Shown here in pieces: positions 5 through 58,220 of a DNA stretch of 64,000 nucleotides. Source of the stretch: Vicinamibacteria bacterium (GTDB lineage Bacteria; Acidobacteriota; Vicinamibacteria; Marinacidobacterales; Marinacidobacteraceae); NCBI GenBank assembly GCA_963668695.2, contig CAXXLQ010000004.1, forward strand, positions 3,136,001 to 3,200,000, read 5' to 3'. Both the position numbers and the translations under genes were made by a program. Numbering within the stretch: position 1 is the first letter of the stretch; each line of letters begins with the position of its first letter. The notes under the pieces are model-generated. The model was not told the origin of the DNA. It ran no database searches and was given only the letters and a program-made list of their open reading frames with translations.

Positions 5-988
5 GTGCTCGTCTCCCTGCTGCCGGCGGTTTTGTTCTTCGCCGGCACCCTCTTTTTCGTACACGGGCTCGCAGTCCGACGCGGCATCGAGGCCATGCCG
101 TCGCGCCCGCGAATCCTCGCGACACTTGCCGAAGGGGCCCATTTCCTTGCCGCCGTCGCGGTCGTCGTCGCGCTCCTCCTCATGAACTATTCGCCCCCGC
201 TGGTGGGGGCCGCTGGGTGTCTCGCGGTCGTCGTCAGCGGCGCACTGAGGCGGCGCACGCGAGTGGCACCGAAACAACTGATCGAGGGGCTGGCGCGGGG
301 CGCCGTCACCGCGGTCCCGGTGTCGCTCGCGTGCGCCGCCGCCGGCATCGTCGTGGGAGTCATCGGTCAGACGGGAATCGGACTCCAGTTCGCCGAACTG
401 CTCCTGGGCGCCTCGCAGGGCGCGCTCCTTCCCGCCCTGGGCCTGTCCGCACTGGTCGCGCTGGTGCTCGGCATGGGTCTCCCGGTGACCGCCGCCTATA
501 TCGTCGTAGCCGTGGTCGCGGCGCCCGCCCTGACCGGACTGGGAGTGCCGCTGCTGACGGCCCATCTCATCCTCTTCTGGCTCTCTCAAACGTCCAACGT
601 GACACCTCCCATCGCCCTCGCCGCCTTCGCGGGTGCGGGCATCGCCGGGGGGCGTCCGATGCCTACCGCGTTCCAGGCGGTGCGGCTCGCTGCGGGGCTC
701 TTCCTGGTGCCGCTGCTCATGGCCTACACCCCGCTCCTGCCGGCGGCCGGCGACCCGCTCGGCCTCGCTCAGGGGATCGCCTTCCTCGGTGGCCTCGTCG
801 CCATGGCAGCCACCGCCGTCGCGCTGTACGGCCACGGACTCCGTCGCGCTTCGCCATCGCAGCGGCTCATTCTTGGCGCTGCGGCAATTCTCCTCATCTT
901 TCCGGATCCCCTGCTTCGGATAGCCGGAGCGGGTCTCGCGGGTCTCGGGTTCATCCCGCAGTTGCGGGCTCCGAGAACCCTCACGTGA
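5..988 (+). CDS. TRAP transporter fused permease (DctM-type 4TM/12TM fusion), 5' part outside window
   Basis: Very hydrophobic ORF with LGMGLPVTAAY and SNVTPPIALAAFAGAGIAG motifs typical of fused TRAP permeases; open from the window edge. Confidence 0.85.
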   Translation: MLVSLLPAVLFFAGTLFFVHGLAVRRGIEAMPSRPRILATLAEGAHFLAAVAVVVALLLMNYSPPLVGAAGCLAVVVSGALRRRTRVAPKQLIEGLARGAVTAVPVSLACAAAGIVVGVIGQTGIGLQFAELLLGASQGALLPALGLSALVALVLGMGLPVTAAYIVVAVVAAPALTGLGVPLLTAHLILFWLSQTSNVTPPIALAAFAGAGIAGGRPMPTAFQAVRLAAGLFLVPLLMAYTPLLPAAGDPLGLAQGIAFLGGLVAMAATAVALYGHGLRRASPSQRLILGAAAILLIFPDPLLRIAGAGLAGLGFIPQLRAPRTLT

Positions 989-1450
989 CGGGGGGAAAGC
1001 GTGAAAGGGGGGCTTGCCCCCCGTTCACAGATTGACGTATCTGTCGCCTGACACGCGGGAGCGGCGAGCGGTCGCGCCCTGCGGGATCGGAAGGTGGTGC
1101 GGCCCTCACATTGGTACAGCGCAGCGTCATCGGCGCTGGTTTCGCGCTCCCGCCCGATGCCGGCCGGAGGCCGGCGCTCCCGCTGTCGCGCGCGCTTCAC
1201 GCGGGTCAGCAGAACGACGCTCCGCTGTCGCGCGCCGCCCGCGTGATCGGGGGGAATGTGTGAAAGGGGGAACTCCCCCTTTCACTAATTGACAACGACC
1301 AATCGGAACTCACCGCAGTGCGCCTGCAGCGCACCAGGGAGTTTCGATTGCCGGCGCGAAGCGCCGGGCGGTTCGGAAGGGGGGCTCACCTTCGAACAAA
1401 CGAATAACGACACCTATCGAGATCGGTGCCCCCCTTCCGGAACGCTCGAC
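986..1450. repeat. Family B structured repeat (copy 1)
   Basis: GTGAAAGGGGG..CCCCCTTTCAC hairpin, ATCGGAACTC..GAGTTTCGAT stem, CCGGCGCGAAGCGCCGG hairpin and GGGCGGTTCGG..CCGGAACGCTCGAC module, shared with loci near 16.1, 38.7 and 57.9 kb. Confidence 0.85.
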
Positions 1451-1984
1451 CTAGAGCAGTCGGACGCGCCAGAGGTACTGGAGCGAGGTAATCACCGTCA
1501 GGGTCACCATCGCCGCCAGCAGCAGGGGAGTCACGACACTGTCCACCTGGAACAGGTTCGCGACGAGGAACCAGAGAATCCCCACGACGTTGATCACCGT
1601 CGCGGCCTTCCCCAGCCGGCTGGGAGTGAACTTCCGTCGTTGAACCGCCAGGTTGTAGGCCCCCGCCACGAAAAGAATCGTCGCATCCCGGGAAAGGACC
1701 ATGATCGCTACCCAGGCGGGGATACGGACCGACACCGCCTCGATGGGGGCGGCAAGGGTCACCACCGCGGAAACGATCAGAACCTTGTCGGCGAGCGGGT
1801 CGAGGAGGGCGCCCAGATCGCTGTTCTCTCCGAGCCGACGCGCAAGAGGCCCGTCGATCATGTCGGTCAGGCCGGCCAGCAGGAGCGCGGAAAGAGCGAG
1901 CCCGAAGCGGCCGTAGAGGATGCAGATGACCACGACGGGCGCCAGCAGCAGCCGAAGAACGGTGAGCTGATTGGCGAGCGTCAT
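1451..1984 (-). CDS. CDP-alcohol phosphatidyltransferase family protein (PgsA/Cls-like)
   Basis: ANQLTVLR start and DMIDGPLARR..GALLDPLADK signature. Confidence 0.9.
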   Translation of the reverse strand: MTLANQLTVLRLLLAPVVVICILYGRFGLALSALLLAGLTDMIDGPLARRLGENSDLGALLDPLADKVLIVSAVVTLAAPIEAVSVRIPAWVAIMVLSRDATILFVAGAYNLAVQRRKFTPSRLGKAATVINVVGILWFLVANLFQVDSVVTPLLLAAMVTLTVITSLQYLWRVRLL

Positions 1985-2009
1985 CCCAAGAGCGCCCCGA
2001 GTGTTCTCA

Positions 2010-2351
2010 ACAACCTTTGGACAAAGTGACGTGAGCGCCGAGGACGGCCAGTCCTCCCGGTGGGGGCGAGGCCCAGTTCTCCCGGTGGGGCCAGTCCTCC
2101 CGGTGGGGGCCCGGCTGACAAGGCGCGTGAGGGAGGAGCCCCCACCGGGAGAATTGGCCCGGGTGGTTTTCGACCGAAACGCAACGATGAGCGGCGCGCA
2201 GCGACGGGGTCAGCCGGGATGCATCGCCGGCCGAGCCCCCACCGGGAGAACTGGGCCGCGTGGGTTTCATCACCGGCTGTTCGGCCGGGATGCATCGCCG
2301 GCCGAGCCCCCACCGGGAGAACTGGGCCGCGTCACTTTGTCCACAGACTGC
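2010..2351. mobile_element. Family A MITE-like element with six U-unit inserts
   Basis: Terminal inverted repeat TGGACAAAGTGAC/GTCACTTTGTCCA; core GGCTGACAAGGCGCGTGAGGGAGGA..TTCGACCGAAACGCAACGATGAGCGGCGCG. Confidence 0.8.
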
Positions 2352-2356
2352 TTGGA

Positions 2357-3790
2357 TCAGGGGAAAATCCCGAGTTCCTCGTAGGAAAGCCGGATCTTCT
2401 CGAGGGCCACGACGTAGGCCGCGGTTCTGAGCGTCCCGCACTCTGGGAACCGCGTCCTGGCCTCCCGGATTTCGTCGTAGGCGCGCGTCATCTTCTCTTC
2501 CAGGCCGCTCACCACGAGTTCCTTTTCGTCGGACTGGGTGACCAGGTTCTGCCGCATTTCCGGACTCAGACGCCGGCCGGAGAGCGTTTCCGCCGCGTTC
2601 AGCAAGGCATTCGTGTTGGCGATTTCGAGCCGCTTCTCGAGGAGACCGAAACGCATGTGAGACAGATTGCGCGCCCATTCGAAGTAGGACACCACGACCC
2701 CGCCCGCATTCAGGTAGACATCCGGAATGACCGGAATGCCGCGCTCCCGGAGGATGCGGTCACCCTCCGGAGTCGTCGGGCCGTTCGCGGCCTCGGCAAC
2801 GAGCTTCGCGCGCACTCGCGGAGCGGTCTCGCCATGGATCACGTTCTCGATGGCCGCCGGGACCAGCACGTCGCAATCCACTTCCAGGACCGCTTCTGGA
2901 GGCAGTTCTTGCTCCGCATCGGGGAATCCCTTGATCGTGCCGTGTTCCGAGCGCCACTCCAGAAGATCCGGTATCGAGATCCCCCGGCCGGAGCGGACGA
3001 CGACCGTAGCGTCCCACTCGCCGATGGCGACGACCTTCGCGCCGCGGCGAGCGAGGATGTCGGCGGTGTGGAAGCCGACGTTGCCGAAACCCTGAATGGC
3101 GACCTCCTTGCCCGGCAGCCCGCGCGTTAACCCGCTTCCGGGAAAGTCCTCGACAAAGTCGAGTCCCCGCGCGAGACCCAGCACGACGCCGCGCCCGGTG
3201 GCGTCCTCACGTCCCCGGATTCCGCCCTGGGTAACGGGTTTGCCGGTGACACACGCGAAATTGTCGATGCCGCCGGGATGCAGCGCGTCGTAGGTGTCCG
3301 CGATCCAGGCCATCTCGCGAGGTCCCGTCCCAAGATCGGGCGCCGGAACGTTTACGCCGGGACCGATGAAGTTCTTGCGGATCAGCTCCGCGGTGTAACG
3401 CCGGGTGATGCGCTCCAACTGTTCCGGGCTGTAGCGACGCGGGTCGAAGGCGATGCCGCCCTTCGAACCTCCAAAGGGTACGTTGACGATGGCGCACTTG
3501 TAGGTCATCAGCGCCGAGAGCGCACTGATTTCCTGTTGATTCACCAGCGGGCTATAGCGAATACCGCCCTTGAGCGGATGGCGGTGGTGGCTGTGCTCCG
3601 CCCGCCAGCCGGAGAACACCTCCACGCGGTTCCCGAACTTGACCGGGAACCGCGTGTAGTAGATCGAGTCCGTGATACAGATCTGATTGAGCAGACCCTC
3701 CGGAAGCTCTAGCGCCCGCGCCGCCTCGTGGACCAGCCCGTGAACGCTTCGCTCGAGATCGAGATCCCTGGCCGCACCGTTCGTCGTCAT
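2357..3790 (-). CDS. gdhA: Glu/Leu/Phe/Val dehydrogenase, probably glutamate dehydrogenase
   Basis: KGGIRY, MTYKCA, GGSKGG, VPAPD, GFGNVG Rossmann motif, EAANGP, NAGGVVVSYFEW. Confidence 0.92.
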   Translation of the reverse strand: MTTNGAARDLDLERSVHGLVHEAARALELPEGLLNQICITDSIYYTRFPVKFGNRVEVFSGWRAEHSHHRHPLKGGIRYSPLVNQQEISALSALMTYKCAIVNVPFGGSKGGIAFDPRRYSPEQLERITRRYTAELIRKNFIGPGVNVPAPDLGTGPREMAWIADTYDALHPGGIDNFACVTGKPVTQGGIRGREDATGRGVVLGLARGLDFVEDFPGSGLTRGLPGKEVAIQGFGNVGFHTADILARRGAKVVAIGEWDATVVVRSGRGISIPDLLEWRSEHGTIKGFPDAEQELPPEAVLEVDCDVLVPAAIENVIHGETAPRVRAKLVAEAANGPTTPEGDRILRERGIPVIPDVYLNAGGVVVSYFEWARNLSHMRFGLLEKRLEIANTNALLNAAETLSGRRLSPEMRQNLVTQSDEKELVVSGLEEKMTRAYDEIREARTRFPECGTLRTAAYVVALEKIRLSYEELGIFP

Positions 3791-4758
3791 ATACCGTCAT
3801 CGTAGAGCAGTTGCTTCGAAGTTCCGGCCTCCTCTCCCCGGAGACCAAGGAATTCCGCCAGCGCCGCCTCGCACTCCCTCGGGTTCACGACACACGGGCG
3901 CCCGTGTGTCGCCCCCTCGACGACGATCATCCGGCTCGCCGGGTGACCGTTCGCCCGAAACACGGCAGCCTGACCGTCAGCCGGAGCCCGTCGGTCCTCA
4001 TCGCCGACGATGACGAGTATCGGGACGTCCCCTTCGCCTAGACGCGCCGAGAACTTCTCCACATCCATCTCCCCCGGCTCGAAACCCGCAGTCAGGCCGA
4101 GTCCGATCAGGGTCAGGTCCCCGGCCGGAAAGGGAGGCAGACCGAGCAGGAGTTCCGCGTAGCGGTCCACCACTTCGGGAGCGTTTCGGAAGGTGCTGTC
4201 GAGCACTACTCCCGCGATGTCGTCGACGATGAGAGCCCCCGCCCGCGCCGCCGCCGCGCCTCCCATCGACACGCCGAGAAGATAGAGACGGTCGCGGGGG
4301 TACTCGCGGCGGAGGAACCGGGCCCCCGCCACAACGTCAAGCGACTCGAAGTAGCCCAGGCTCGTGTGGTCGCCGGCGCTCTCCCCATGACGTCTGAGAT
4401 CCAGAGTCAGCGCGTGGCATCCACGGCGGACCAGATATGCGGCCCGGTCCAGAACTTCGTGGCGTGACCGGAAGAGGCCATGTGCCAGCACTACGGAACA
4501 CCCAGCCGGATCCTGAGCCCGAATGAGCCACGACGAGAGACGCACCCCGTCCTCGCTCTCCAGAAGGACCGTTCGGTAGGAGTTTCCGAAATCCCCCGGC
4601 GTCGCACGATCCTCCCGGTCCTGGGGCCGCGTTCCCGCGAAACTCGCGAGAAGCGCACCCACCGCCATCGGCAGCGAGAGGGCGACCAGAAGCAGCAATC
4701 CAGCGACGCTCAGAAGAATCCGGACCCCGCGGCGGTGGCGCTTGCCCGCGACGGTCAT
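3787..4758 (-). CDS. Alpha/beta fold hydrolase with N-terminal membrane anchor
   Basis: LAHG oxyanion motif, DLRRHGES, GVSMG nucleophile elbow, GDED..H; 4-bp overlaps with neighbours. Confidence 0.85.
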   Translation of the reverse strand: MTVAGKRHRRGVRILLSVAGLLLLVALSLPMAVGALLASFAGTRPQDREDRATPGDFGNSYRTVLLESEDGVRLSSWLIRAQDPAGCSVVLAHGLFRSRHEVLDRAAYLVRRGCHALTLDLRRHGESAGDHTSLGYFESLDVVAGARFLRREYPRDRLYLLGVSMGGAAAARAGALIVDDIAGVVLDSTFRNAPEVVDRYAELLLGLPPFPAGDLTLIGLGLTAGFEPGEMDVEKFSARLGEGDVPILVIVGDEDRRAPADGQAAVFRANGHPASRMIVVEGATHGRPCVVNPRECEAALAEFLGLRGEEAGTSKQLLYDDGI

Positions 4759-5957
4759 GTCCTCCCAAGGATCCGCCCGCTGGCGACCCCAGGTTCCGGA
4801 ACCCTCAGAATCAGTAGCGCCGCCAGCCCGCCGAGGCCAGCCATCATCCAGCAGACTGCTTCGAATCCGTAGGGATAGATCAATCCACCCGCGGCAGCGG
4901 CCGAGGCGATACCGAGTTGCGAGAACACGTTGGAAAAGCCGATGAACGCGCCGCGGCGGGCTCCCGGTACGAGCTCACTCCGAAGGGCGGCGAACGCGGC
5001 TATACGCGCCACCCCGAGACATCCGAAGAGGAGCAGCGCGACGACCAGCGGCACGGTGGGCAATGCCGGGAGCACCGGAGTGAGGGCAGCGGCCGCCACC
5101 GATACCACCAGCGTGAAGCGACGCTTGCCAAAGCGATCCGAGAGCGGGCCGGCGAGTAGCTGGGACACCATGATCGCGGCGCCCAAACCGCCGTACAGCA
5201 GGCCCACCTGCTCCAGGGGGAAACCGCGTACTTCCTGAAGCCACCCGGAAGCGTAGGCAGAGACCCCCACCAGGCTCCCGGACATGCAAAACGCCGCCAG
5301 CGCAGCGTTCCGGTGCGGCGGACTTCGAAGGAACTCGAGATGTCCGGCCAGGCTCCGGCCGATGGATCCCGAATTCGCGCCCGCCGCTCGGCGTTCCGGC
5401 AAACCAGCCAGCATCGCCACCGCCACAACCGCGAAGAGCGCGATTGCGGCATAGACCCATCGATGTCCGAAGCGCGCTGCCGCAAAGGCCGCGCCGACCT
5501 GCGAAAGCACCGACGCCCCCATCGCCCCGCCCATCAGGAGGGCCATGATCTTTCCTCGGCGCTGGTACGGCACCAGGTCCGCGACCCACGCCACGGCGAG
5601 TGCCGCGATCGTGCCCCCCGCGAACCCGGCGGCGATCCGGGCCAACATGAAATACCCGTAGCGCGGCGTCAGCGAAATCACGGCTGCCGAACTCAGCATC
5701 AGGATGACCGCCAAGAGCAGATAGGGACGGCGACCGCGAGCGTCGGATAGCGGAGCGATGACCAACCCGGCAAACGCCGCCGCAAATGCATACGCCGAAA
5801 TAGCGAGGCCCACACCCGGAACACCGACGTCGAGCCCTTCGGCGAGGGCGGCGATCAGGGGCGTAAGCACCTGCTGGTCGAGCAGCCCGAGAGCAATGAC
5901 GCTGCCCAACACCACACCGGGCCAGGCAAACGAGGGGCTCTCGGGGCGGGTAGTCAA
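4755..5957 (-). CDS. MFS transporter
   Basis: About 12 TM segments; motif A in both halves (PLSDARGRR, PLSDRFGKRR). Confidence 0.9.
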   Translation of the reverse strand: MTTRPESPSFAWPGVVLGSVIALGLLDQQVLTPLIAALAEGLDVGVPGVGLAISAYAFAAAFAGLVIAPLSDARGRRPYLLLAVILMLSSAAVISLTPRYGYFMLARIAAGFAGGTIAALAVAWVADLVPYQRRGKIMALLMGGAMGASVLSQVGAAFAAARFGHRWVYAAIALFAVVAVAMLAGLPERRAAGANSGSIGRSLAGHLEFLRSPPHRNAALAAFCMSGSLVGVSAYASGWLQEVRGFPLEQVGLLYGGLGAAIMVSQLLAGPLSDRFGKRRFTLVVSVAAAALTPVLPALPTVPLVVALLLFGCLGVARIAAFAALRSELVPGARRGAFIGFSNVFSQLGIASAAAAGGLIYPYGFEAVCWMMAGLGGLAALLILRVPEPGVASGRILGRT

Positions 5958-6124
5958 CGACAGAGGACCGCGCGAAGGCTACCTTCCAGAGCACCGGGAC
6001 ATCCGCCACAGCCCCGGGCCGCGGCGCTCCCCAAGCCACCCGTCCGCCCTGAATCCTGCCCACCGGGCGGCCGCGCGCCGCCAATCAAATCGTGGCGCAA
6101 CGGCTGAAACCTGGATTTGAGGGG

Positions 6125-6152
6125 TTGCGTCGATTCCAAGCCTATATATCCT
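6125..6152 (+). promoter_or_regulatory. Candidate sigma70 promoter for the DUF349 gene
   Basis: TTGCGT-16 nt-TATCCT, 15 nt upstream of ATG 6168, in a divergent intergenic region. Confidence 0.35.
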
Positions 6153-6167
6153 CGCGCCCCCACCCAC

Positions 6168-9125
6168 ATGTCCGTACTCGAGCGATTCGCCTCTCCGCTG
6201 CGAAGCCGCGACGCCGCCGTCCGTGTCAAGGCTGTTCAGAAACATCCCCCGGAGGACACCGCAGCGCTGGCGGAGCTCGCCCGTTCAGATCCGGATGCGC
6301 GGGTCCGCAAGGAGGCAGTGCGCCGCATCGAGGCGCCGCGCGTCCTGCTTGACCTCACGGACAGCGCCGGCGATGACGCCACCCGGCGTCTCGCCCGATC
6401 GCGCGCGGAATCGCTACTCGTCAAGATCGCTGCCGACGATCGGGATCTCGGAGAATCGCAGCGCGCGCTCGGACTCCTTGCCCCGCCGCGCGCGGTGGCC
6501 GAAGTGGCGTGCCGGGCGCGCTTCGAGGCGGTTCGCTTCGACGCACTCGCGCGCCTGACCACCGGACCGGCGGCGGGCGCGGAACGGGACGGTGCGGTCG
6601 CCACGGTGGCCGGAAAGGCCGCCGACCCTGCCCTTCGGAGTCAGGCTCTCGAGGCGATCGTCAGTCCGGCCGGCCTGCTTCAGGTGGCGATTTCCGCCGA
6701 GGATCGCGAGAGTGCCCAAGCGGCGGTCCGGCGGTTGGAAGATCCCGAGTCGCTGCTCGCCGCGGCAAGCAACGCCAGTTTCAAGGGGGTCCGCCGGCTC
6801 GCCCGGCGTCGAGCCGACGAACGCCTGCCACCAGATCATCCCGAGCGGGTGCGGTCGCGCGAGAAGGCCCTTGGTGGCCTGTTGGAACGCCTGGCCGAGG
6901 CCGACCCGGCCAACTCCGGTCAGAATGCGACCCTTCTCGCCGAAGCGGACGAGGTCGCGGCCTCGGGCCCCGCCGCCCCGGAATTCATCACCCGGCTGGC
7001 GGCGCTGCGCGAGACCGTTCAGGGCGGGGGCGCCCCTCACCCGCGCGCCGCGCGTCTGTTGATCCCGGAAGCAACCCTTCCGGCATTCAATCAGTCGGCG
7101 CCCCTCGAAGACACGGAACCACCTCCGGACCTCTCACCGGAGATCGAGGAAATCTTCACCCGGCTGGAAGATCCGGGGGATGGCCTGAGCCTGGACGAGG
7201 TGGACTCCGCCGAGCGGGAATGCGGCCGGCTGCTCGAGAGGATTGCGCGCGCCGGCGCCGCTCGCTCCCGACTCCGGGCGGCGGCGGACGGCGCCCGGGC
7301 ACGGGCGCTGCAGCGCAAGAAGGCCCGAATTCGGGAATTCGAGACGGTCGAACTGGCGGACCACGCCGCACTGCTTGCGAAGTCACTCGAAAACCCCCGC
7401 TCCGGCCCGGAACTCGCACAGGCTCGCCGCGAACTGACGCGTCTCGTGCGGCGGTTCGAGCGCCTGGAACCAGCGGAGACACCGGACACCGAGCGGTTCC
7501 GCAACGCTGCCCGCGGCGTAGAGACCGCGCTCAGCAGCGCCGAAGCGGCACGAAAGGACCACCTCCGACAGTCCGAGGAGCGGATTGCCGCGCTCGAGGA
7601 GCGACTCGGGACGCTGGAGTCATCCGAATCTTTCCCACTCGAGGAAGGTGAGGCGGTGCTTCGCGAACTCGGCGGCCTCCGCAGCAACGCGTCTCTCTGG
7701 CGGCAGGTCGGGCCCGAGCGGCAGGCACGTTTTCAGCGCTCCCAAGCTGCACTCATCCCGAGGCTGCGGGAGGCGCGGGAGATTCGGGAATGGCGTCACT
7801 GGTCGAATCTTGAAGAGCAGTCGGCACTCATTCGCCGAGCCCGGGCGCTCATGGAAGACGACGACCTCCAGCGCGTGGAGCGGGAACTCACGCTTCTCGA
7901 ACGCGCGTGGCACAAGGCCCGGCACACGGGACGCGACCGGGGTCAGGAACTCTGGGAAGAATGGGGGAAGGTCCGGGAAGCACTGCTCGAGCGCGTCGGC
8001 CCGTTGCGCGAAGCCGCGGAGCGCGAACTGGCCCTGCAACTGGAGGGGCTCCGGGCGCTCGCGGAAAAGGCGGAGGAGATCGCCGACGGCAAGGATCCGC
8101 GCCAAGGCGCCGAGATGCGCGCCCTGATGCCCGCCTGGCGAGAGCGCGCCCGGGGAATCGGGAAACGCTCCGAACGCTTGTGGAAGCGGTTTCGCGCTGC
8201 CAACGACCGATATTTCACCGAACTCAAGGTACTGGGAAAGAAACGGTACGAAGAGTTCGCCGCGAACATCCCGATCCGGGACGAACTGATCGGCCGCGCC
8301 CGGGCGCTCTTCGACCAAACGGACGCCGCGGCGGTGCGCGAAGCGGTGCGTGATCTGATGCGGGAGTGGAAGGAGTCGCCGCCCGTCCCGCGCAAGGAAA
8401 GCGAGCGCCTCTGGGACGAATTCCGGACCGCCTGCGACACCGCGCGGGATCGCCTCCGGGAGAAACCGGAAAACCCGAACTCGGGCTCCAGCGAAGCCCA
8501 GGAACACTCTCCGCCGAGGGAAGCGGAAGCCGACCTCCGCACCCGCATCGCGGAACTGGCTGCCCAACCGGCCGGAGAGCGGCGCGACGCCGCGATTTCG
8601 CTTTGGGATGACTATCGGCGGATTACCCGCTCCACCGACCGATTGGCCCGGGAAACCGACCGCGCGTTGCTCGACGTTCTGCGGGAGACCTTCGAAGCGG
8701 ATCCCGAGACCTTTGCCGGCACCCGCCTGGACCAGGAGCAACTCGCCGCGCGTCTGGAAGGCTTGCTGGAAGCGGTCGAGACGCTGGCGGCACCTCGCGC
8801 CTCCGCGCCGTCGGACGCCGGAGTCGTCGGCATTGTGGAACATCTGCAACGCACTCTGCAGGCGGGACGGGCGGCGGACCGCGGGGCAGTCCTGCGGGAA
8901 GACGCACAGGCCGCGACCCAGATTCTGGAGCGAGCCCGCGCTGCCGGTCCGGCGCTCGCCGACCCCACGGTGGAAACCGTAAAGCGGATCGAAGGGCTGG
9001 CCCGGAAGGTCATTGCCCGGGCGCCATCAGCCGAAGAGCAGCCACGGGACCGCGGGCGCGGAGACCGCGGGCGCGAGGACCGCGGGCGCGGGCGTACTCG
9101 CGGGCGACGCCCACCGAGGCCTTAG
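6168..9125 (+). CDS. Large DUF349-domain helical protein with N-terminal HEAT-like repeats
   Basis: Repeated W..G..PR..SE.LW..FR.A.D motifs (ERLWKRFRAANDRYF, ERLWDEFRTACD); N-terminal DPDARVRKEAVRRI; ATG 6168 chosen over TTG 6117. Confidence 0.75.
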   Translation: MSVLERFASPLRSRDAAVRVKAVQKHPPEDTAALAELARSDPDARVRKEAVRRIEAPRVLLDLTDSAGDDATRRLARSRAESLLVKIAADDRDLGESQRALGLLAPPRAVAEVACRARFEAVRFDALARLTTGPAAGAERDGAVATVAGKAADPALRSQALEAIVSPAGLLQVAISAEDRESAQAAVRRLEDPESLLAAASNASFKGVRRLARRRADERLPPDHPERVRSREKALGGLLERLAEADPANSGQNATLLAEADEVAASGPAAPEFITRLAALRETVQGGGAPHPRAARLLIPEATLPAFNQSAPLEDTEPPPDLSPEIEEIFTRLEDPGDGLSLDEVDSAERECGRLLERIARAGAARSRLRAAADGARARALQRKKARIREFETVELADHAALLAKSLENPRSGPELAQARRELTRLVRRFERLEPAETPDTERFRNAARGVETALSSAEAARKDHLRQSEERIAALEERLGTLESSESFPLEEGEAVLRELGGLRSNASLWRQVGPERQARFQRSQAALIPRLREAREIREWRHWSNLEEQSALIRRARALMEDDDLQRVERELTLLERAWHKARHTGRDRGQELWEEWGKVREALLERVGPLREAAERELALQLEGLRALAEKAEEIADGKDPRQGAEMRALMPAWRERARGIGKRSERLWKRFRAANDRYFTELKVLGKKRYEEFAANIPIRDELIGRARALFDQTDAAAVREAVRDLMREWKESPPVPRKESERLWDEFRTACDTARDRLREKPENPNSGSSEAQEHSPPREAEADLRTRIAELAAQPAGERRDAAISLWDDYRRITRSTDRLARETDRALLDVLRETFEADPETFAGTRLDQEQLAARLEGLLEAVETLAAPRASAPSDAGVVGIVEHLQRTLQAGRAADRGAVLREDAQAATQILERARAAGPALADPTVETVKRIEGLARKVIARAPSAEEQPRDRGRGDRGREDRGRGRTRGRRPPRP

Positions 9126-9307
9126 CAGCCTGTGGACAAAGTCACGCGGCGTTCGAGCGGCGATGCATCCCGGCTGAACCGCGTCGCTTCGCGTCGCTCA
9201 TCGTTGCGTTTCGGTCGGAATACACCCGGTATTCCTCCCTCACGCGCCTTGTCAGCCGGGCGCCTCACCGCTCTCGGCGCTCACGCCACTTTATCCACAG
9301 GCTGCTA
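9123..9307. mobile_element. Family A MITE-like element, minimal 181-bp form with no U inserts
   Basis: TA|GCAGCCTGTGGACAAAG...CTTTATCCACAGGCTGC|TA; the left TA is part of the upstream TAG stop. Confidence 0.85.
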
Positions 9308-9418
9308 GCCAGCAGCCAGCGGACACGATCACCCGACCCCCTCCCGCCGGCGATGCGCCGGCGATGCATCGTTCGAGGGAGTCCGCCGGCGCGGCCGGCA
9401 AGCCGCTCAATCTCCCGC

Positions 9419-11668
9419 TCAATCTCCCGTTTTGAGGCGCAGCGCGTTTCCCACCACCGATAGCGAGGAGAGCGCCATGGCGGCAGCGGCCCCTTCCGGG
9501 GGCAAGAGCAATCCCGTCGCCGGATACAGAACCCCGGCTGCGAGGGGAACGGCAGCCAGGTTGTAGAAGAAGGCCCAGAACAGATTCTGCCGAATGATTC
9601 GGAGCGCGCGGCGCGCAATCCGGAGCGCAACACTCACCAGACGCAGATCCGGGCGCATCAGAGTCACTGCCGCCGCCTCCCGGGCTATCTCGGTCCCCTC
9701 GGCGAAGGCGATCCCCACATCGGCGCGAGCGAGCGCGGGAGCGTCATTGATCCCGTCTCCGACCATCGCGACCGGGCCGTAGCGCTCCCTCAGGCGATCC
9801 AGGGCCGAGAGCTTCTGATCCGGCAGGAGCCCTCCCTCGAGTTCCCGGACGCCGATCTCGGCGCCGGTCGCCGCCACCGCGGCCGGTTCGTCGCCCGAAA
9901 CCAGCGAAACCGCCAGTCCGTCGCCCTCCAGTCTCCGGACCAGTTCCGCCGCCTCGGGGCGCGGCCGGTCCCGAAAACCGATGCTCCCGACGAATTCGAG
10001 GCGCCCCGCCGATTCCCGAAGTACCCGCAGCCGGCCCGACGCGCCCGCATCGTCCGGGGCCGGCGGAAGGGGCAGCCCACGCTCCCGGACCAAGCGATCG
10101 CTGCCGACCCACACGGTGGTTCCGCCGCCAAAGCTCGCGCTGACTCCGCGGCCCGGGAGAGCCTCGAAACGCTCGGGGGTCTCGAGCACCAATCCTTCCT
10201 GGTGCGCATGGGTGACCAGCGCTCTCCCGAGGGGATGTTCGGATCCCTGTTCCGCGGAGGCCGCGAGTCGAAGGAGATTCTCGGCGCTCCCGCCGGGCGC
10301 CGGCTCCACCGCGACAACCACCGGTTCACCGGTCGTGACCGTCCCCGTCTTGTCGAGCCCCACCACCCGGACGGAAGCCAGCGCCTCGAGGGCTCCCCCG
10401 GAGCGAAACAAAATGCCCCGCCGCGCACTTCGGCCAGTCGCCACCAGTACCGCGATGGGCGCCGCGAGGCCTACCGCGCAAGGACAGGCCACCACCAGCA
10501 CCGCCACCCCTCGAGCCAGGGCGAAATCCGTGGCGCCCCCGGCAAGAAGCCAGCCGCCCACCGTGACGGCCGCCGCCACCATCACGATCGGGACGAAGAC
10601 GCCCGCCACCCGGTCGGCGATCCGCTGAATCGGAATCTTCTCCGTCTGCGCCTTCCGGACCGACGCGGCGATCCTCGAGATGGTGCTGTCGGAAGCCACC
10701 CGGGTCACCTCAACCTCGACGGCGCCCGTGAGATTCATCGCCCCGGCGATCACCGGATCGGGCGCCGCCCGTTCGACGGGCACGCTCTCGCCGCTTACGA
10801 GCGACTCATCCATCGCGGCCCCGCCCTGAACGATGCGACCATCGAGCGGCACCCTTTCTCCGGGTCGCACCCGAACATGTTCGCCAAGTTGGATCCGGGC
10901 TACCGGCACCATCCGCTCGAACCCCCGGCGCACCACCCGAGCCTGGTCCGGAGCGAAGGCGAGCAACTCGCCGAGCGCATCGGCGGCTCGGCCCCGGGCC
11001 CGCTCCTCAAGCCAGCGTCCGAGGCGGACGATCGCGACGATGATCGCGGCAGTATCGAAGAACAGGGGGCTCCCCGCGGCTCCCGCCAGGGCCACCACCG
11101 AGGACACGTAAGCAGTTCCGGCGCCGAGCCCGATCAGGCTGTCCATCCCGAACGCCCGGTATCGCAGAGCCTTCCCGAACGCCATCAGGAAATCGCGACC
11201 GAGCAACACACACACCGGAGTCGCGAGCAGAAATTGCGACCACCGGCCCGGAGTGGTCCCGCCGAAGGCGCTCATCGCAACCGCCATGGCGGCCGCGGAG
11301 AGCCCGAGGGCCATGGCGACGGGGAAAAGTCCGTCGCGCCAGCCCAGGCGTCCAGCGGTGTTCCCTGCCCGCCCTGGTTGCTCGGGACCAGGTTCTTCGG
11401 CCGGCTCCAGCCGGTAGGGACCGGCCGATTCCACGGCCCCGGCGACATCAGCGGCGAACGCGGCGTCGGGTGCATCGACTCCCAATAGCCGGACGGCGAT
11501 ATCCCCCGTGAGCAGGCTCACCTCCGCGCTTTCGACCCCGGGGAGACTGACCACCGCCTTCTCGATGCCAGCCACGCAACCGGCGCAATGCATCCCGACG
11601 ACACGCGCCTCGAACCTGGCTTTCGGTACAAGTACCGGCGGTGGCGGCGCTTCGGAATGCCGATCCAT
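9419..11668 (-). CDS. copA: Cu(I)-translocating P1B-1 type ATPase
   Basis: GMHCAGC metal-binding domain, SGES, CPC, DKTGT, SEHPLG, GDGIND, YN and MALSS motifs; ATG 11668 follows a TATACT box (ORF track starts at 11728). Confidence 0.92.
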   Translation of the reverse strand: MDRHSEAPPPPVLVPKARFEARVVGMHCAGCVAGIEKAVVSLPGVESAEVSLLTGDIAVRLLGVDAPDAAFAADVAGAVESAGPYRLEPAEEPGPEQPGRAGNTAGRLGWRDGLFPVAMALGLSAAAMAVAMSAFGGTTPGRWSQFLLATPVCVLLGRDFLMAFGKALRYRAFGMDSLIGLGAGTAYVSSVVALAGAAGSPLFFDTAAIIVAIVRLGRWLEERARGRAADALGELLAFAPDQARVVRRGFERMVPVARIQLGEHVRVRPGERVPLDGRIVQGGAAMDESLVSGESVPVERAAPDPVIAGAMNLTGAVEVEVTRVASDSTISRIAASVRKAQTEKIPIQRIADRVAGVFVPIVMVAAAVTVGGWLLAGGATDFALARGVAVLVVACPCAVGLAAPIAVLVATGRSARRGILFRSGGALEALASVRVVGLDKTGTVTTGEPVVVAVEPAPGGSAENLLRLAASAEQGSEHPLGRALVTHAHQEGLVLETPERFEALPGRGVSASFGGGTTVWVGSDRLVRERGLPLPPAPDDAGASGRLRVLRESAGRLEFVGSIGFRDRPRPEAAELVRRLEGDGLAVSLVSGDEPAAVAATGAEIGVRELEGGLLPDQKLSALDRLRERYGPVAMVGDGINDAPALARADVGIAFAEGTEIAREAAAVTLMRPDLRLVSVALRIARRALRIIRQNLFWAFFYNLAAVPLAAGVLYPATGLLLPPEGAAAAMALSSLSVVGNALRLKTGD

Positions 11669-11869
11669 GTCGATTCGCGGAGTATAGGAACCAGCAACGA
11701 TGTCGGTCGGGACGGCCGCGGCTGGCATGAATTCGGTTGCGCGCTTCCCTGAGGCGTTCCCCTCAGGGAAACGGATCCGCGAGTGACCGCCCGCCTAGCG
11801 GCGGTGCCGGTCTGAAGGCTCCCACCGGGAGGACTGGCCGGCGCGTCCAGGGCTACAATCGCCAGCCGC

Positions 11870-12382
11870 TTGCCTGTCCGCCCGATCCTGCGTTACGGGG
11901 CTTCCCCCCTGACTACCCCGGCCGAACCCATCGCGGACTTCGGCCAGAACTGGCAGGGTCTCGTGGACGACATGATCGCAACTATGTACGCGGCTCCCGG
12001 CATCGGCCTCGCCGCACCCCAGATCGGCGTGGGCGTGCGTCTGTTGGTGATCGACATCACCGTCGGGGAAAAGGACGGCGAACTGATCGTGATGGCGAAT
12101 CCGGAGATCCTCGAATCGCGGGGCAGCCAATCCGAAGAGGAGGGCTGCCTCTCGGTTCCGGAGTACTCCGGCGTGACCCGGCGGCCGGGTTGGGTGCGGG
12201 TGCGCGGGCAGCGTCTCGACGGTTCGTTCTACGAGATGGAGGGCGACGGATTGCTGGCGCGGGCCTTCGCCCACGAGGTGGACCACCTGAACGGCCGCCT
12301 CTTTCTGGATCGGCTCGGACTCCTGAAACGGGATCTCATCGTTCGCAAACTGCGTCGCCGCATGCGTCGCGGCGACTGGTAA
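11870..12382 (+). CDS. def: Peptide deformylase
   Basis: GIGLAAPQIG, EGCLS, HEVDHLNG; TTG start preceded by TACAAT. Confidence 0.95.
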   Translation: MPVRPILRYGASPLTTPAEPIADFGQNWQGLVDDMIATMYAAPGIGLAAPQIGVGVRLLVIDITVGEKDGELIVMANPEILESRGSQSEEEGCLSVPEYSGVTRRPGWVRVRGQRLDGSFYEMEGDGLLARAFAHEVDHLNGRLFLDRLGLLKRDLIVRKLRRRMRRGDW

Positions 12383-12420
12383 CCCCCGGCGGGTCGGTGC
12401 GGCGGGTCGGAGGAACAGAA

Positions 12421-14346: not shown

Positions 14347-14347
14347 A

Positions 14348-17198: not shown

Positions 17199-17208
17199 CT
17201 TCAACCGG

Positions 17209-43865: not shown

Positions 43866-44298
43866 CCGTGGGGAAAGCACCCCGCACGATTCCCGGAACG
43901 GTACGGGCAGCGATTCCGGCGACTTGTGCGCGTGCGCGGCGCTTCCCCCACGGGGGGATACCGCGCATCGCTCCGCGATCCGCGCCATCGTCTTCCGTGG
44001 GGCGGGGAAACCCCTCCCCACGCCCCTCCCCCGCGGCGCTCCGCGCCGCGAATGGACCGCACCAGAGTTTCGCCACCGCACACTCCGTGGGAAAAGCACC
44101 CCGCACGATTCCTGGAACGGTACGTGCGGCGATTCCGGCGATTTGTGCGCGTGCGCGGCGCTTTCCCCACAGGGGGATAGCGCGCATCGCTCCGCGATCC
44201 GCGCCATCGTCTTCCGTGGGGAGGGGAGACCCCTCCCCACGCCCGTCCCCCGCAGCGCTGCGCGCCGCGAATGGACCGAACCAGTGTTTCGCCACCGC
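43866..44298. repeat. Family C: two tandem hairpin-rich units of about 219 bp
   Basis: CCGTGGG(G/A)AAAGCACCCCGCACGATTCC starts at 43866 and 44085; internal hairpin CGTGGGGAGGGGAGACCCCTCCCCACG. Confidence 0.85.
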
Positions 44299-46326: not shown

Positions 46327-46903
46327 GTCGGTGGTGGAACCCGGGTGAGCGCCGAGGCCGGTGAGGCGCCCGGCTGACAAGGCGCGTGAGGGAGGAATAC
46401 CCGGTGTATTTCGACCGAAACGCAACGATGAGCGGCGCGAAGCGACGCGGTGAACAGCCGGTGATGGAACCCGCGTGAGCGCCGAGGCCGGCCAGTCCTC
46501 CCGGTGGGGGCGAGGCACCCGGCTGACAAGGCGCGTGAGGGAGGAGCCCCCACCGGGAGAACTGGCCCGGGTGTATTTCGACCGAAACGCAACGATGAGC
46601 GGCGCGCAGCGACGCGGTTCAGCCGGGATGGATCGCCGGCCGAGCCCCCACCGGGAGAACTGGGCCACGTGGGTTTCATCACCGGTTGTTTGGCCGGGAT
46701 GGATCGCCGGCCGAGCCCCCACCGGGAGAACTGGGCCACGTGGGTTTCATCACCGGTTGTTTGGCCGGGATGGATCGCCGGCCGAGCCCCCACCGGGAGA
46801 ACTGGGCCGCGCGGGTTTCATCACAGGCTGTTTGGCCGGGATGGATCGCCGGCCGAGCCCCCACCGGGAGAACTGGGCCGCCTGGGTTCCACCACCGGCT
46901 GCT
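46327..46903. mobile_element. Composite family A element with four tandem 71-bp terminal units, between thrS and infC
   Basis: GCCGGGATGGATCGCCGG units at 46622, 46693, 46764 and 46835. Confidence 0.85.
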
Positions 46904-46910
46904 CGGCCGC

Positions 46911-52697: not shown

Positions 52698-53586
52698 TAA
52701 CAGCCTGTGGTGAAACCCACGTGAGCGCCGAGACCGGCGAGGCGCCCGGCTGACAAGGCGCGTGAGGGAGGAGCCCCCACCGGGAGAACTGGCCCGGGTG
52801 TATTTCGACCGAAACGCAACGATGAGCGGCGCGCAGCGACGCGGTTCAGTCGGGATGGATCGCCGGTCGAACGCCGTGTGGGTTTTGCCACAGGCTGTTA
52901 ACAGCCTGTGGTGGAACCCGGGTGAGCGCCGAGGCTGGCCAGTTCTCCCGGTGGGGGCGAGGCGCCCGGCTGACAAGGCGCGTGAGGGAGGAATACCTGG
53001 TGTATTTCGACCGAAACGCAACGACGAGCGGCGCGCAGCGACGCGGTTAACAGCCTGTGGTGGAACCCGCGGGAGCGCCGAGGCCGGCGAGGCCCAGTTC
53101 TCCCGGTGGGGCCAGTTCTCCCGGTGGGGGCCCGGCTGACAAGGCGCGTGAGGGAGGAGCCCCCACCGGGAGAACTGGCCCGGGTGTATTGCGACCGAAA
53201 CGCAACGATGAGCGGCGCGCAGCGACGCGGTTCAGCCGGGATGGATCGCCGGCCGAGCCCCCACCGGGAGAACTGGGCCGCGTGGGTTTCATCACCGGTT
53301 GTTTGGCCGGGATGGATCGCCGGCCGAACCCCCACCGGGAGAACTGGGCCGCGCGGGTTTCATTACAGGCTGTTCAGCCGGGATGGATCGCCGGCCGAGC
53401 CCCCACCGGGAGAACTGGGCCGCGCGGGTTTCATCACAGGCTGTTCAGCCGGGATGGATCGCCGGCCGAACCCCCACCGGGAGAACTGGGCCGCGCGGGT
53501 TTCATCACAGGCTGTTTGGCCGGGATGGATCGCCGGCCGAACCACCACCGGGAGAACTGGGCCGCGCGGATTCCACCACCGGCTGT
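52698..53586. mobile_element. Largest family A composite: three elements plus five tandem 71-bp terminal units
   Basis: TTAACAGCCTGTGG starts at about 52697, 52898 and 53047; 71-bp units at 53235, 53306, 53377, 53448 and 53519. Confidence 0.88.
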
Positions 53587-55412: not shown

Positions 55413-55456
55413 GGAAATCCGATTGGCGCCGCCGGCGCCCTCTGAAGGAGCTCACC

Positions 55457-56486: not shown

Positions 56487-56501
56487 TGGCACAGGCATTG
56501 C
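56487..56501 (+). promoter_or_regulatory. Sigma54 (-24/-12) promoter for OMP paralogue 2
   Basis: TGGCAC-AGGCA-TTGC, identical to the site at 55398. Confidence 0.82.
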
Positions 56502-56558
56502 GCAACCGAGGTTGTCGTGTTTGCCGGTGGGACCGGCGCTTCCCCAAGGATCCTGACC

Positions 56559-57332
56559 ATGATTCGTCCCGGCCAACTCCTGCCGACACTGCTTGCGACT
56601 GCCTGTTTCGCTACCTTCGATCCCGGAACCGGGGCCGCCGCCGAGGGCACGGGCCAACCCCCCCGCGGCACCCGGTACCCGGACAGTTCGCAGACCGCGA
56701 CCGCCCGGCCCCGCTATGGGTTTTCCGCGTTTGGCGGGTTCCGCGCCTTGCAGATCAAAAGCCAGCTCTTCGATAGCAACGAGGTGGATTTCGGCATCAC
56801 TGAGGGCGATTTCGGGTCTGGCCGCATTGGATTCGAAGTCGACTTCGCGCTGCTGCCCATGGTGGAAATCATGGTCGGTTTCGACACCGGTGGGTCGGAA
56901 ACCTCCGGCAACTATCTGGACCTGGTGTACGAAGACGGTTCCGAGATCGAACACTCGGCGCGGCTGGAGATGACCGAGTACACGTTCGGAGCACGTGTCC
57001 GGCCGCTTCCGGAAGGCCGGGTAAGTCCGTACCTGGCGGTCGGGGTTTCGCTGGCTTCCTACCGCTACTCCGAAACGGGCGAGTTCGTGGACTTCGAAAC
57101 GGCGGACATTTTCTATGACGAGTTCGAGGAGCGCCAGGCGCTCTTCGGGTTCTTCGCCGGCGCCGGGCTCGACTATGCACTCGTCCGGTTGCCGTACGGG
57201 CGGCGAATCGACCTCTTCGGTGAGTTTCGCTATGCCCGGGGCAAGGGTGAACACGAGGACGGCTTCGACGGCTTCGGCGATCTGACCATAGGACGAACGG
57301 GCGCGCTCTTCGGACTCCGGGTCCGGTTCTAG
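56559..57332 (+). CDS. Outer membrane beta-barrel protein, paralogue 2
   Basis: SD AAGGA, signal peptide, shares YLDLVYEDG.EIEHSARL.MTE and FVDFET.DI.YDEF with paralogue 1; ends FGLRVRF. Confidence 0.82.
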   Translation: MIRPGQLLPTLLATACFATFDPGTGAAAEGTGQPPRGTRYPDSSQTATARPRYGFSAFGGFRALQIKSQLFDSNEVDFGITEGDFGSGRIGFEVDFALLPMVEIMVGFDTGGSETSGNYLDLVYEDGSEIEHSARLEMTEYTFGARVRPLPEGRVSPYLAVGVSLASYRYSETGEFVDFETADIFYDEFEERQALFGFFAGAGLDYALVRLPYGRRIDLFGEFRYARGKGEHEDGFDGFGDLTIGRTGALFGLRVRF

Positions 57333-57620
57333 CAGCCTGTGGTGGAACCCGGGTGAGTGCCGAGGACGGCGAGGCGCCCGGCTGACAAGGCGCGTGAGGG
57401 AGGAGCCCCCACCGGGAGAACTGGCCCGGGTGTATTCCGACTGAAACGCAACGACGAGCGGCGCGAAGCGACGCGGTCAGCCGGGATGGATCGCCGGCCG
57501 AGCCCCCACCGGGAGAACTGGGCCGCCTGGGTTTCATCACCGGTTGTTTGGCCGGGATGGATCGCCGGCCGAGCCCCCACCGGGAGAACTGGGCCGCCTG
57601 GGTTTCACTACAGGCTGCTA
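57330..57620. mobile_element. Family A element fused to the OMP2 stop codon, with a duplicated 71-bp end
   Basis: TA|GCAGCCTGTGGTGGAACCC...GGGTTTCACTACAGGCTGC|TA. Confidence 0.85.
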
Positions 57621-57699
57621 GCGCCGCGGGACGGCCGGTGCGGGCCGTCTGACGGCACTCAGGTTGACCGGGCCCCACGCCATCGCCGCAGGTTTCGCG

Positions 57700-58220
57700 C
57701 TCCCGCGCGACGCCGGGCCCCACCGGGAGAACTGCCCAGAGGTCGGCGTTCCAAGCCGCCCCCGCGCTCCTTCTCGGGCGGCGTGGGAGCGGTTTCCGCT
57801 GTCGCGCGCGCTCCACGCGGTTCGGCAGTACGCGCCTCGCAGGCAGCGCATAGCTGACCGCGCTAAACAAATGGCGGCGAACCGGAGGTTCGCCGCCTGC
57901 GTGTCCGGGGGGAATGTGTGCAAGGGGGGCTCGCCCCCCTTTCACACGAAGGTAACGACGCATCGGAACTTGCCGCCGCGCGCCGGAGGCGCGCAAGGAA
58001 GTTTCGATGCCCGGCGCGAAGCGCCGGGCGGTTCGGGAGGGGGGGCTCTATCCCCTCCTACTCGACAATCCGGACTGATCCAACGATGTGCCCCCGCTCC
58101 CGGAACGCTCGACCCCTGGGCGCGAAGCGCCGGGCGGTTCGGGAGGGGGGGCTCAGTTCCCTCCCACTCGACAATCCGAACTGATCCAACGATGTGCCCC
58201 CCCTCCCGGAACGCTCGACC
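57700..58220. repeat. Family B structured repeat with a duplicated terminal module
   Basis: Same hairpin series as copies at 1.2, 16.1 and 38.7 kb; two GGCGCGAAGCGCCGGGCGGTTCGGGAGGGGGGG modules. Confidence 0.85.

Follow-up and report, generated by a model that had tools for sequence, protein, structure and literature searches.

How does a bacterium come to carry the same series of hairpins, in the same order, again and again between its genes, and what kind of molecule were those hairpins selected to form? These questions are raised by a stretch of 64,000 nucleotides (the window) from an uncultured Vicinamibacteria bacterium, in which a hairpin-rich intergenic mosaic repeat of ~270 bases, which we call Family B, stands at four loci, always on the + strand and with its modules in identical order. 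The window is C4:3136001-3200000 of the source genome (G000, a 4.10-Mb assembly with 67.5% G+C), and it has been compared with relatives that we number in the same way (G001, G004 and so on), the named ones being Vicinamibacteria or 'Ca. Marinacidobacterium'.

The original prediction, made from the letters of the window, held that structure rather than sequence is under selection and that the element could be either an undescribed noncoding RNA (ncRNA) or a mobile element folded as single-stranded DNA (ssDNA). Of these two, the mobile element is the better; an ncRNA gene has neither an Rfam match nor a promoter-like site to recommend it. Our own answer, in which we place somewhat more confidence than doubt, is that Family B is a non-autonomous mosaic resembling the repetitive extragenic palindromes (REPs), the inverted REP doublets called REPINs and the bacterial interspersed mosaic elements (BIMEs), with + strand hairpins that would be read by a REP-associated tyrosine transposase (RAYT) of the HUH type. 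We favor this answer because the copy number is high, copies stand in tandem arrays, orthologous sites are empty or differently filled, and near-identical dispersed copies occur in the relative G001; we favor it also because pairing is strand specific and the 5' part of the element shares homology with sequences flanking RAYT genes.

The Element and Its Loci in the Window

Read along the + strand, the composite opens with a REP-1-like hairpin (GCCGG..CCGGCGYTCC), which is the first module and is found at three of the four loci. Module 1 (AAAAC..GGCRGCGAAC-loop-GTTCGCYGCC) stands at loci 2, 3 and 4 only (16056-16078, ~38663-38686 and 57873-57897), in agreement with the three of four first described. 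Module 2 is the G-rich hairpin GTGAAAGGGGGG..CCCCCCTTTCAC, and the covariation claimed for it is real (GTGAAAGGGGG/CCCCCTTTCAC at locus 1 vs. GTGGGCGGGGG/CCCCCGCCCAC at locus 3). Module 3 is ATCGGAACTC..GAGTTTCGAT around GCGCGCC..GGCGCGC; the stem first described, ATCGGAACT..AGTTTCGAT enclosing GYGCGC..GCGCRC, is found at all four loci. There follow a mini-hairpin of the GCGAAGC type, GGCGCGAAGCGCC, and 3' of it the long hairpin that we call unit T, GGGCGGT-arm-loop-arm-ACCGCTCGAC, which has a total size of ~87-100 nt, a stem of 20-24 bp and a spacer that is almost constant in length (mode 43 nt). The original prediction had the outline of these last two parts: the invariant core exists, but its true extent is GGCGCGAAGCGCCGG, the outer CC being missing from the tandem units, and the arrangement GGGCGGT-stem-loop-stem-CGCTCGAC is borne out, in tandem at loci 3 and 4. 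Measured as unit T plus mini-hairpin, the tandems run to 3.4 copies at 38799-39187 and to two at 58013-58220. The features, by position in the window and all on the + strand, are these:

984-1032 (+), locus 1: extra, truncated copy of module 2 (blastn match, C4 3136984-3137032), directly after the TGA (986-988) of a + strand DctM-like gene (Pfam)
1231-1368 (+), locus 1: modules 2-3 and GCGAAGC mini-hairpin, module 1 missing (nhmmer, C4/3137231-3137368)
1353-1450 (+), locus 1: unit T, as GGCGCGAAGCGCC plus long hairpin, 0 nt from the stop (CTA) of a minus-strand CDP-alcohol phosphatidyltransferase gene
15960-16017 (+), locus 2: REP-1-like hairpin (GCCGG..loop..TCGGCGTTCC) plus AAGCCGTCCCCGCGCTT spacer, the 5' component of the composite, homologous by alignment to RAYT flanks in G008
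16046-16211 (+), locus 2: modules 1-3 and mini-hairpin; on the minus strand, module 1 (16056-16078) reads as a hairpin and then ATTGTTTTTG
16196-16296 (+), locus 2: unit T (mini-hairpin plus long hairpin)
38480-38606 (+), locus 3: two REP-1-like hairpins (38480-38520, 38581-38606) upstream of the composite
38654-38814 (+), locus 3: modules 1-3 and mini-hairpin (nhmmer, C4/3174654-3174814); module 2 stem in the covarying GTGGGCGGGGG/CCCCCGCCCAC form
38799-39258 (+), locus 3: four tandem T units (38799-38909, 38915-39025, 39031-39141, 39147-39258)
57712-57768 (+), locus 4: REP-1-like hairpin upstream of the composite (C4 3193712-3193768)
57863-58027 (+), locus 4: modules 1-3 and mini-hairpin; on the minus strand, module 1 (57873-57897) resembles a terminator
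58013-58219 (+), locus 4: two tandem T units (58013-58113, 58119-58219), ending 1 nt from the TAA of a minus-strand inositol monophosphatase gene

All four loci are intergenic, and three of them meet the stop codon of a minus-strand gene as originally described: at 0 nt (1451), at 1 nt (58221), and, at locus 3, with the TAA of a PAD_porph gene (39242-39244) lying within the right arm of the fourth T unit. That fourth unit deviates in stem and loop from the first three, which are 97% alike. The neighbors of the window copies are housekeeping genes (Pfam), and neither nucleases nor recombinases. The 58-nt block made up of the REP-1-like hairpin and spacer of locus 2 recurs ~60 times in G000.

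A different repeat family of G000 also begins with the GGCGCGAAGCGCC mini-hairpin and continues with GGGGAGGGGTGTGGGGAGGGGTTTCCCCTCCCC and a GCGAATCGCGCAGCGATTCGC palindrome (C4 601971, 2399855, 3605787, 3606071, 3684155 and 3725307-3725874, and possibly window 43866-44298). The mini-hairpin is therefore common to more than one family.

Pairing Is Maintained, and on One Strand

Two sets of hairpins carry the structural argument. In G000, 105 sites match an 11-nt core, and 80 of these fold into an outer hairpin of 70-125 nt, which measures 83-88 nt in 54 of the 80. The second set is a diverse alignment of 61 copies, six of them units from the window and 55 from other genomes, the latter drawn from 89 candidates with at least 15 outer pairs in a fold filter and thinned at ~86% identity. 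Across the 61 copies, 98.4% of the cells of the 19 outer stem pairs are paired, 12 of the 19 pairs vary on both sides, and 150 cells are compensatory. Not one of 500 column shuffles matches the observed values on any of five measures, and when the partner column is slid by 1-3 positions, pairing falls to 39-54%; the covariation counts do not depend on the fold filter. The hairpins are maintained through compensatory change, and the proposal that structure is what selection sees is upheld by the double-sided pairs and the shuffles. The stems, which had been said to differ greatly from locus to locus and still pair, do still pair, but they are variants of one G-rich theme and not unrelated sequences. 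Modules 1-3 covary as well (examples are pairs read as GC in 60 copies and CG in 14, AT in 68 and GC in 17, or CG in 66 and TA in 19), although there, one conserved G.T in module 3 aside, the wobbles show no clear asymmetry.

Which strand, then, does the pairing serve? Non-Watson-Crick cells in the 61 copies are G.T or T.G 109 times and A.C or C.A twice. Two wobble columns are conserved (G15.T132, seen in 59 of the 61 copies, and T21.G126, where T-A and C-G are the alternatives), and with these two removed the count is still 27 G.T to 2 A.C; the 54 G000 hairpins taken alone give 70 to 4. Every G.T on the + strand would be an A.C mismatch on the other, and the pairing constraint therefore acts on the single + strand. 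Folded as DNA, the + strands of four window units have z scores of -4.75 to -6.14, and the + strand fold is stabler than that of the minus strand in three of the four. Mini-hairpins of the d(GCGAAGC) type are extraordinarily stable as DNA and much less so as RNA, and they occur at ssDNA initiation sites, according to passages of a 2026 review (PMC13037366).

Two further structural ideas were tried and dropped. Mimicry of a tRNA acceptor stem by the conserved G.U fails on the 3' tail, which is not conserved, and pairing between the loop motif and the left arm fails in those subfamilies where the motif persists and the arms cannot pair with it.

The Loop

The loop of unit T was thought to be of 41-44 nt, unrelated from locus to locus and always in possession of a GATC, and it was suggested that it might be a guide or a captured sequence. 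Its length is indeed near-constant, but the range is wider than that: 37-45 nt in 48 of the 80 folded G000 hairpins, with a mode of 43. Loops are rich in C (C 37%, G 25%, A 19%, T 19%). A GATC is present in every window loop, but in only 32 of the 80 G000 hairpins and 22 of the 61 diverse copies, composition alone predicting ~14%. Nor are the loops unrelated, for they have weak motifs such as ATCCGAAC in common and, inside subfamilies, align as ordinary homologues.

Against the idea of a guide, the same loop turns up at many places. In G001, at least 12 of 31 sampled copies, a sample biased by having been picked for likeness to locus 2, have the locus 2-type loop, and dispersed full elements there are 96.6-99.2% identical, loop included; at the orthologous locus 2 itself, the loops of G000 and G001 differ at two positions. 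Searched against G000, the loops of 43 units match family copies only, bar four chance matches of 16-17 nt. Two window stretches (loci 2 and 3, holding five of the seven window units) have no match in a phage collection, the locus 2 stretch and a 12-kb piece of contig C1 have none in a plasmid collection, and a conserved 20-nt motif has 0 exact matches in IMG/VR. The loop behaves as a spacer that marks lineages and not as a guide or a capture.

Copies in the Genome and in the Genus

With iterated nhmmer searching, modules 1-3 come up 107 times in G000, grouped into 74 arrays, and 78 of these copies are close to full length; the exact 13-nt core of the mini-hairpin, GGCGCGAAGCGCC, occurs 81 times. 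Given the 107 copies and the fold z scores, the recurrence of the same modules in the same order at four loci, with which all of this began, is far beyond chance. Copies adjoin crude gene calls and do not lie inside them, coding overlap being limited, in a few copies, to the last codons or the stop codon.

The 261-nt element has matches in all 15 other genomes of the genus, weak matches in two of three other genera of the family (E 8.9e-4 and 2e-5), and none in 12 genomes from two other families of the order. Public records that hold both the 20-nt core motif and a hairpin of the family's type are Vicinamibacteria, 'Candidatus Marinacidobacterium' or metagenome-assembled genomes of Acidobacteria; ~20 of the 114 public occurrences of the motif are chance matches in unrelated genes of other phyla. 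A full-text literature search for 'Marinacidobacterium' turned up no paper.

The copies are unevenly placed. About 30 of the 74 arrays lie within C4 1.93-2.25 Mb, or 8% of the chromosome, where cumulative GC skew is locally flat or reversed and where G000 is syntenic with the RAYT-bearing part of G001; the skew minimum and maximum of G000 are at ~1.1 Mb and ~3.06 Mb. Separately, stretches of the 144-kb contig C1 duplicate C4 at 95-100% identity, tRNA genes and Family B copies included (for example, 42793-42936, 97434-97571 and 119607-119736 vs. 391478-391621, 350132-350269 and 327915-328081). They could stem from segmental duplication, or the assembly, for which contamination is stated as 9.3%, could include a second strain.

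Gain, Loss and Nesting at Orthologous Sites

What do the relatives have where G000 has Family B? At locus 2, G004, G009 and G014 have a repeat-free spacer of 113-141 nt, G008 has other repeats, and G001 has the element duplicated with an extra module; the G000 composite itself sits between the terminal inverted repeats of another family, which we call family A. At locus 1, a family A element abuts the same stop codon in G001 and G004, and there is no repeat in G008, G009 or G014. At locus 4, G004 and G008 have a longer gene end, which in G000 and G001 the element replaces. At locus 3, all that G001 has is the divergent fourth unit, the stem of the G014 unit is similar and its loop unalignable, and G004, G008 and G009 keep only a remnant of the right arm. 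Within G000, the nearest dispersed paralogue of a copy is 90% identical at the median and 94-95% at most, C1/C4 duplicates excepted.

At one G001 locus (L140), an insert with REP-1 in it and a fresh Family B copy sit within the loop of a unit T whose G000 counterpart is intact (C4 2220246-2220665), and unit T loops may be landing sites for other repeats. A candidate for a clean empty site, L145 against C4 2543423-2543588, was rejected, the spacer being wholly diverged.

Family A is a classical miniature inverted-repeat transposable element (MITE), with terminal inverted repeats (G)CAGCCKGTGGTGRAACCC and TA-containing flanks, often exactly on TAA or TAG stops. The 183-nt copy at 9122-9304 is missing from contigs of two DNA and two RNA-library runs, in which 9121 is joined to 9305; family A therefore appears to be polymorphic and recently mobile in the natural population. 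Its window copies are these:

9122-9304, 18403-18820, 31674-31777, 40531-40962, 46622-46909, 53230-53586: family A

The Link to RAYT

A gene matching PF01797 is present at one or two copies in 13 of the 15 congeners. The encoded open reading frames (ORFs) carry the HVH and tyrosine motifs of a Y1 HUH enzyme, and the genes are flanked by REP-1 arrays (GCCGG-N6-CCGGCG) with a period of 80-111 nt. G000 has no RAYT: there is no PF01797 match, and tblastn with two congener proteins gives no E below 0.03. The RAYT-like loci by genome are these:

L139 (G010), L135 (G014), L136 and L160 (G001), L162 and L163 (G008), L164 (G009): RAYT-like loci

The left flanks of both G001 RAYT genes are kept in G000, at 93.5% and 95.8% identity (C4 ~2163619 and ~2178537), and the rest of the two fetched loci has no G000 match beyond weak, repeat-like ones. 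One of the two kept flanks ends where a Family B copy starts. A RAYT gene of G008 is bracketed by inverted [REP-1 + AAGCCGTCCCCGCGCTT + module 1], which aligns with the 5' region of Family B at loci 2 and 4, and flank arrays of the G010 RAYT contain a mini-hairpin of the GCGAAGC type. Copies that are 96.6-99.2% identical in G001, as against at most 94-95% in G000, fit activity where RAYT persists; this is one comparison, made with a biased sample.

Other candidate partners were looked for in G000. There is no TnpA or TnpB of IS200/IS605, no TnpB over the cut-off, no reverse transcriptase, and no integron integrase over the cut-off, the only matches to TIGR02249 being Xer-like ones of at most 79 bits against 265; the tandem units of loci 3 and 4 contain no ORF, as an integron cassette would. 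A single IS110-family (DEDD) gene (C4:482399-482872) adjoins no window copy. Fragments of REP-1-like and Family B sequence lie within ~2 kb of it.

Gene Ends and tRNA Ends

The context of 69 units was tabulated from crude gene calls based on third-position GC (GC3) and from ARAGORN. Unit T has its 3' end no more than 15 nt from that of a convergent coding sequence (CDS) in 18 units and of a convergent tRNA in seven (~5 if C1/C4 duplicates are counted once), which makes 25 of 69, an unusually large share, and comes as close to a co-directional gene in two; the remaining 42 are further off, many of them internal to arrays or beside other repeats. Several stop codons overlap the last bases of the element (CCGCTCA, a TGA on the gene strand). 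Relaxed gene calls (~6000 ORFs, noisy and good for rough counts only) give 49 convergent to 25 co-directional genes downstream and 37 to 37 upstream. In other genomes, a tRNA (Pro, His, Val or Leu) ends -2 to 5 nt from the unit at 9 of 12 loci that had been hand-picked for their tRNA-like look, and a unit beside tRNA-Pro has been retained in four genomes, its loop drifting.

The minus strand has a feature of its own. There, module 1 is a GC-rich hairpin and then a T-run (16078-16046 and 57897-57863), the form of an intrinsic terminator, with a function that is predicted; the A-tract is retained in 70 of the 93 copies that have the module 1 hairpin, and in G001 and G008, an ordinary gene is followed by a hairpin like that of module 1, T-run included. 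That the element stands at the 3' ends of genes and tRNAs reflects a preference in insertion, tolerance, or both, and it may secondarily serve as a 3'-end hairpin or terminator.

The last codons and stops of the PAD_porph and inositol monophosphatase genes vary among congeners with the repeat that abuts them (window 39242-39262 and 58221-58240; L119-L123 and L129-L133). Since the differences track the repeat, repeats are remodeling protein C termini in the genus.

Family B Among Known Repeats

REPINs, first defined in Pseudomonas fluorescens SBW25, are inverted doublets with a less conserved spacer, critical in its length and in its capacity to let the hairpin form; compensatory changes are common in them, and they may be clustered in tandem (PMC3116915). 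Unit T resembles a REPIN: it has inverted arms, a spacer of fixed length, a long hairpin predicted for ssDNA or mRNA and compensatory changes, and it is extragenic, present in tens to hundreds of copies and in tandem clusters, in a lineage that has RAYT at one or two copies with related flanking repeats. It differs in that the palindromic REP beside RAYT is REP-1, a sequence other than its own arms, in that it is fused to a conserved 165-nt leader of three hairpins and to an invariant GCGAAGC mini-hairpin, in that its arms vary widely between subfamilies, and in that G000 has no RAYT and the lineage is Acidobacteriota (Vicinamibacteria).

Other known systems also bear comparison. In Escherichia coli, BIMEs are mosaics of REP hairpins and other motifs in fixed order, lying at gene 3' ends or between convergent genes in variable tandem number. 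Family B shares the constant module order, the tandem sub-blocks of variable number and the gene 3' ends, whereas its module sequences are unrelated and its hairpin is much longer, with a large loop. In IS200/IS605 transposition, imperfect hairpins of one strand are the signal and no target duplication is made, and the strand-specific G.T wobbles of Family B, with no target duplication found, are consistent with such a process; against the likeness, G000 is without the TnpA and TnpB of that family, and no conserved target tetranucleotide was identified. The d(GCGAAGC) heptamer is known at ssDNA phage origins, at ssiA and at phage N4 promoters, as sections of the review cited above relate (PMC13037366). 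Family B has the identical heptamer in a 5-bp stem, invariant in the 81 exact 13-mer cores of G000; unlike those cases, it sits here in a repeat of the chromosome and has no tie to a replication origin or primase site.

Put together, these likenesses suggest how the family might work. Copies would spread as ssDNA, their + strand hairpins recognized by RAYT. Unit T would be an inverted doublet of the REPIN kind with two arms of 20-24 nt, and its loop would be the REPIN spacer, constrained in length and in a weak motif only, marking subfamilies and carrying no information. Once RAYT had been lost from G000, copies there would change by decay, tandem duplication and deletion only, and G001, with RAYT retained, would be showing a recent burst. 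That the intermediate is ssDNA, that RAYT acts on unit T and that the family froze in G000 once RAYT was gone is what we infer.

Weighing the Alternatives

Several observations speak against this account. The profile of unit T finds nothing in eight RAYT loci with flanks of ~1.5-2 kb, and modules 2-3 are likewise not in those flanks; the dependence of unit T on RAYT therefore rests on its association with the 5' modules. Copy number does not follow RAYT, G000 and G004 being without the gene and having 50 and 27 matches. By regular-expression estimates for G000, unit T follows 51 of the 107 copies and a REP-1-like hairpin lies within 200 nt upstream of 27, so the composite could consist of several elements, frequently nested. 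Among 20 G001 loci compared with G000, there is no clean pair of empty and filled sites that would define ends and target sequence; no target-site duplication was seen, there being no such pair in which to see one. Array orientation has no relation to the direction of replication (by eye, one replichore has roughly equal numbers of either orientation and the other a bias). The G.T wobbles suit RNA as well as they suit ssDNA, and the fold filter, a + strand RNA fold permitting G.U, slightly favors both pairing and G.T.

Suppose instead that Family B were a domesticated 3'-end module, a 3' UTR on the strand of the upstream gene, with hairpins directly behind the stop codon or tRNA end that protect against exonucleases or pause transcription and a module 1 that terminates it, copies being kept because they end and stabilize transcripts. 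We judge this unlikely, and it is compatible with the REP-like reading. The excess of convergent over co-directional abutment (18 CDS and 7 tRNA vs. 2 of 69), the close fit to tRNAs at 9 of the 12 hand-picked loci, the minus-strand hairpin with its T-run and much-retained A-tract, the similar hairpin after ordinary genes in G001 and G008, and the tRNA-Pro unit kept in four genomes despite loop drift would all be expected of it. It runs into the wobble asymmetry, which puts the constraint on the opposite strand and leaves the gene strand with an A.C in 59 of 61 copies; further, a 43-nt loop is unlike an intrinsic terminator, locus 2 lies between two + strand genes and so in the "wrong" orientation, about a third of neighbor genes are co-directional, and the same genes are without the element in relatives. 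Bolder still, and in our opinion improbable, is the notion of unit T as a single-stranded hairpin element, specific to one strand, homing by a route other than RAYT to the exact 3' boundary of transcription units and delivering a hairpin and terminator cassette there, landing 0-6 nt after stops and after the last base of tRNAs, always facing them; ssDNA or R-loops at the ends of transcription may perhaps be what it targets. Were that true, it would be a new class of mobile DNA.

One might also see in the + strand a multi-copy structured ncRNA, with the long hairpin and the conserved G.U as RNA features. Conserved G.U pairs are typical RNA recognition features, and covariation with G.U far above A.C on the + strand is what such an RNA would display. 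We find the idea quite improbable all the same: no Rfam family matches the element at its gathering threshold (the window passes for two tRNAs only), and the best sub-threshold match, to mir-1343, has 29.9 bits against 51; around locus 2, at E <= 1, only look-alikes of miRNA precursors and Streptomyces sRNAs appear, so far below threshold that we rejected them as generic hairpin matches. There is neither a promoter-like site nor a + strand terminator, a + strand transcript would enter the abutting gene antisense, GCGAAGC is markedly less stable as RNA, and tandem arrays, nesting inside a MITE, and presence and absence at orthologous sites are the behavior of repeat DNA. Two metatranscriptomes (X16 and X17), set against two DNA runs over window 1-18300, allow no conclusion on transcription, with contigs at 0-12x from which neither strand nor ends can be read and repeat bins that sum copies. 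Just as doubtful to us is a conventional double-stranded MITE, in which the arms of unit T would be terminal inverted repeats for a DDE transposase and covariation would follow the co-evolution of transposase subfamilies. The inverted arms of 20-24 bp and the size of ~87-100 nt are right for it, and the genome hosts, in family A, another MITE family that is clearly active, with terminal inverted repeats and TA-containing flanks; yet neither target-site duplication nor clean ends were found, the strong asymmetry of G.T over A.C is not expected where a protein recognizes duplex repeats, and the arms vary widely in one genome. To the loop as a programmable guide or captured sequence (a CRISPR spacer, a bridge or omega RNA, an integron attC cassette) we give almost no credence. 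Constant length with variable sequence is what first suggests it, and against it stand the recurrence of one loop at no fewer than 12 loci of G001, where identity between dispersed full copies reaches 99.2%, the matches confined to the family in G000, the empty searches of phages (loci 2 and 3), plasmids (locus 2) and IMG/VR (motif), a genome with no TnpB or integron integrase over the cut-offs, with no reverse transcriptase and with its one IS110 gene away from the window copies, and a neighborhood of housekeeping genes.

What the Family May Tell Us

Most of what has been established about REP, REPIN and BIME elements comes from Proteobacteria. Family B is a rich, multi-module case from uncultured Vicinamibacteria, in the Acidobacteriota: most likely a variation on a known kind, that of the REPIN, with an unusually clear set of signals in its strong covariation, its strand-specific wobble pairs, which point to a single-stranded functional form, its invariant DNA mini-hairpin and its precise abutment to stops and tRNA ends. 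For annotation, the lesson is to mask the covarying hairpins of this family as repeats rather than annotate them as sRNA genes, and to expect that some stop codons and gene 3' ends in the genus are supplied by the repeat. And in G001, which keeps RAYT, and G000, which does not, nature has provided a comparison on whether the loss of RAYT freezes a REPIN population.

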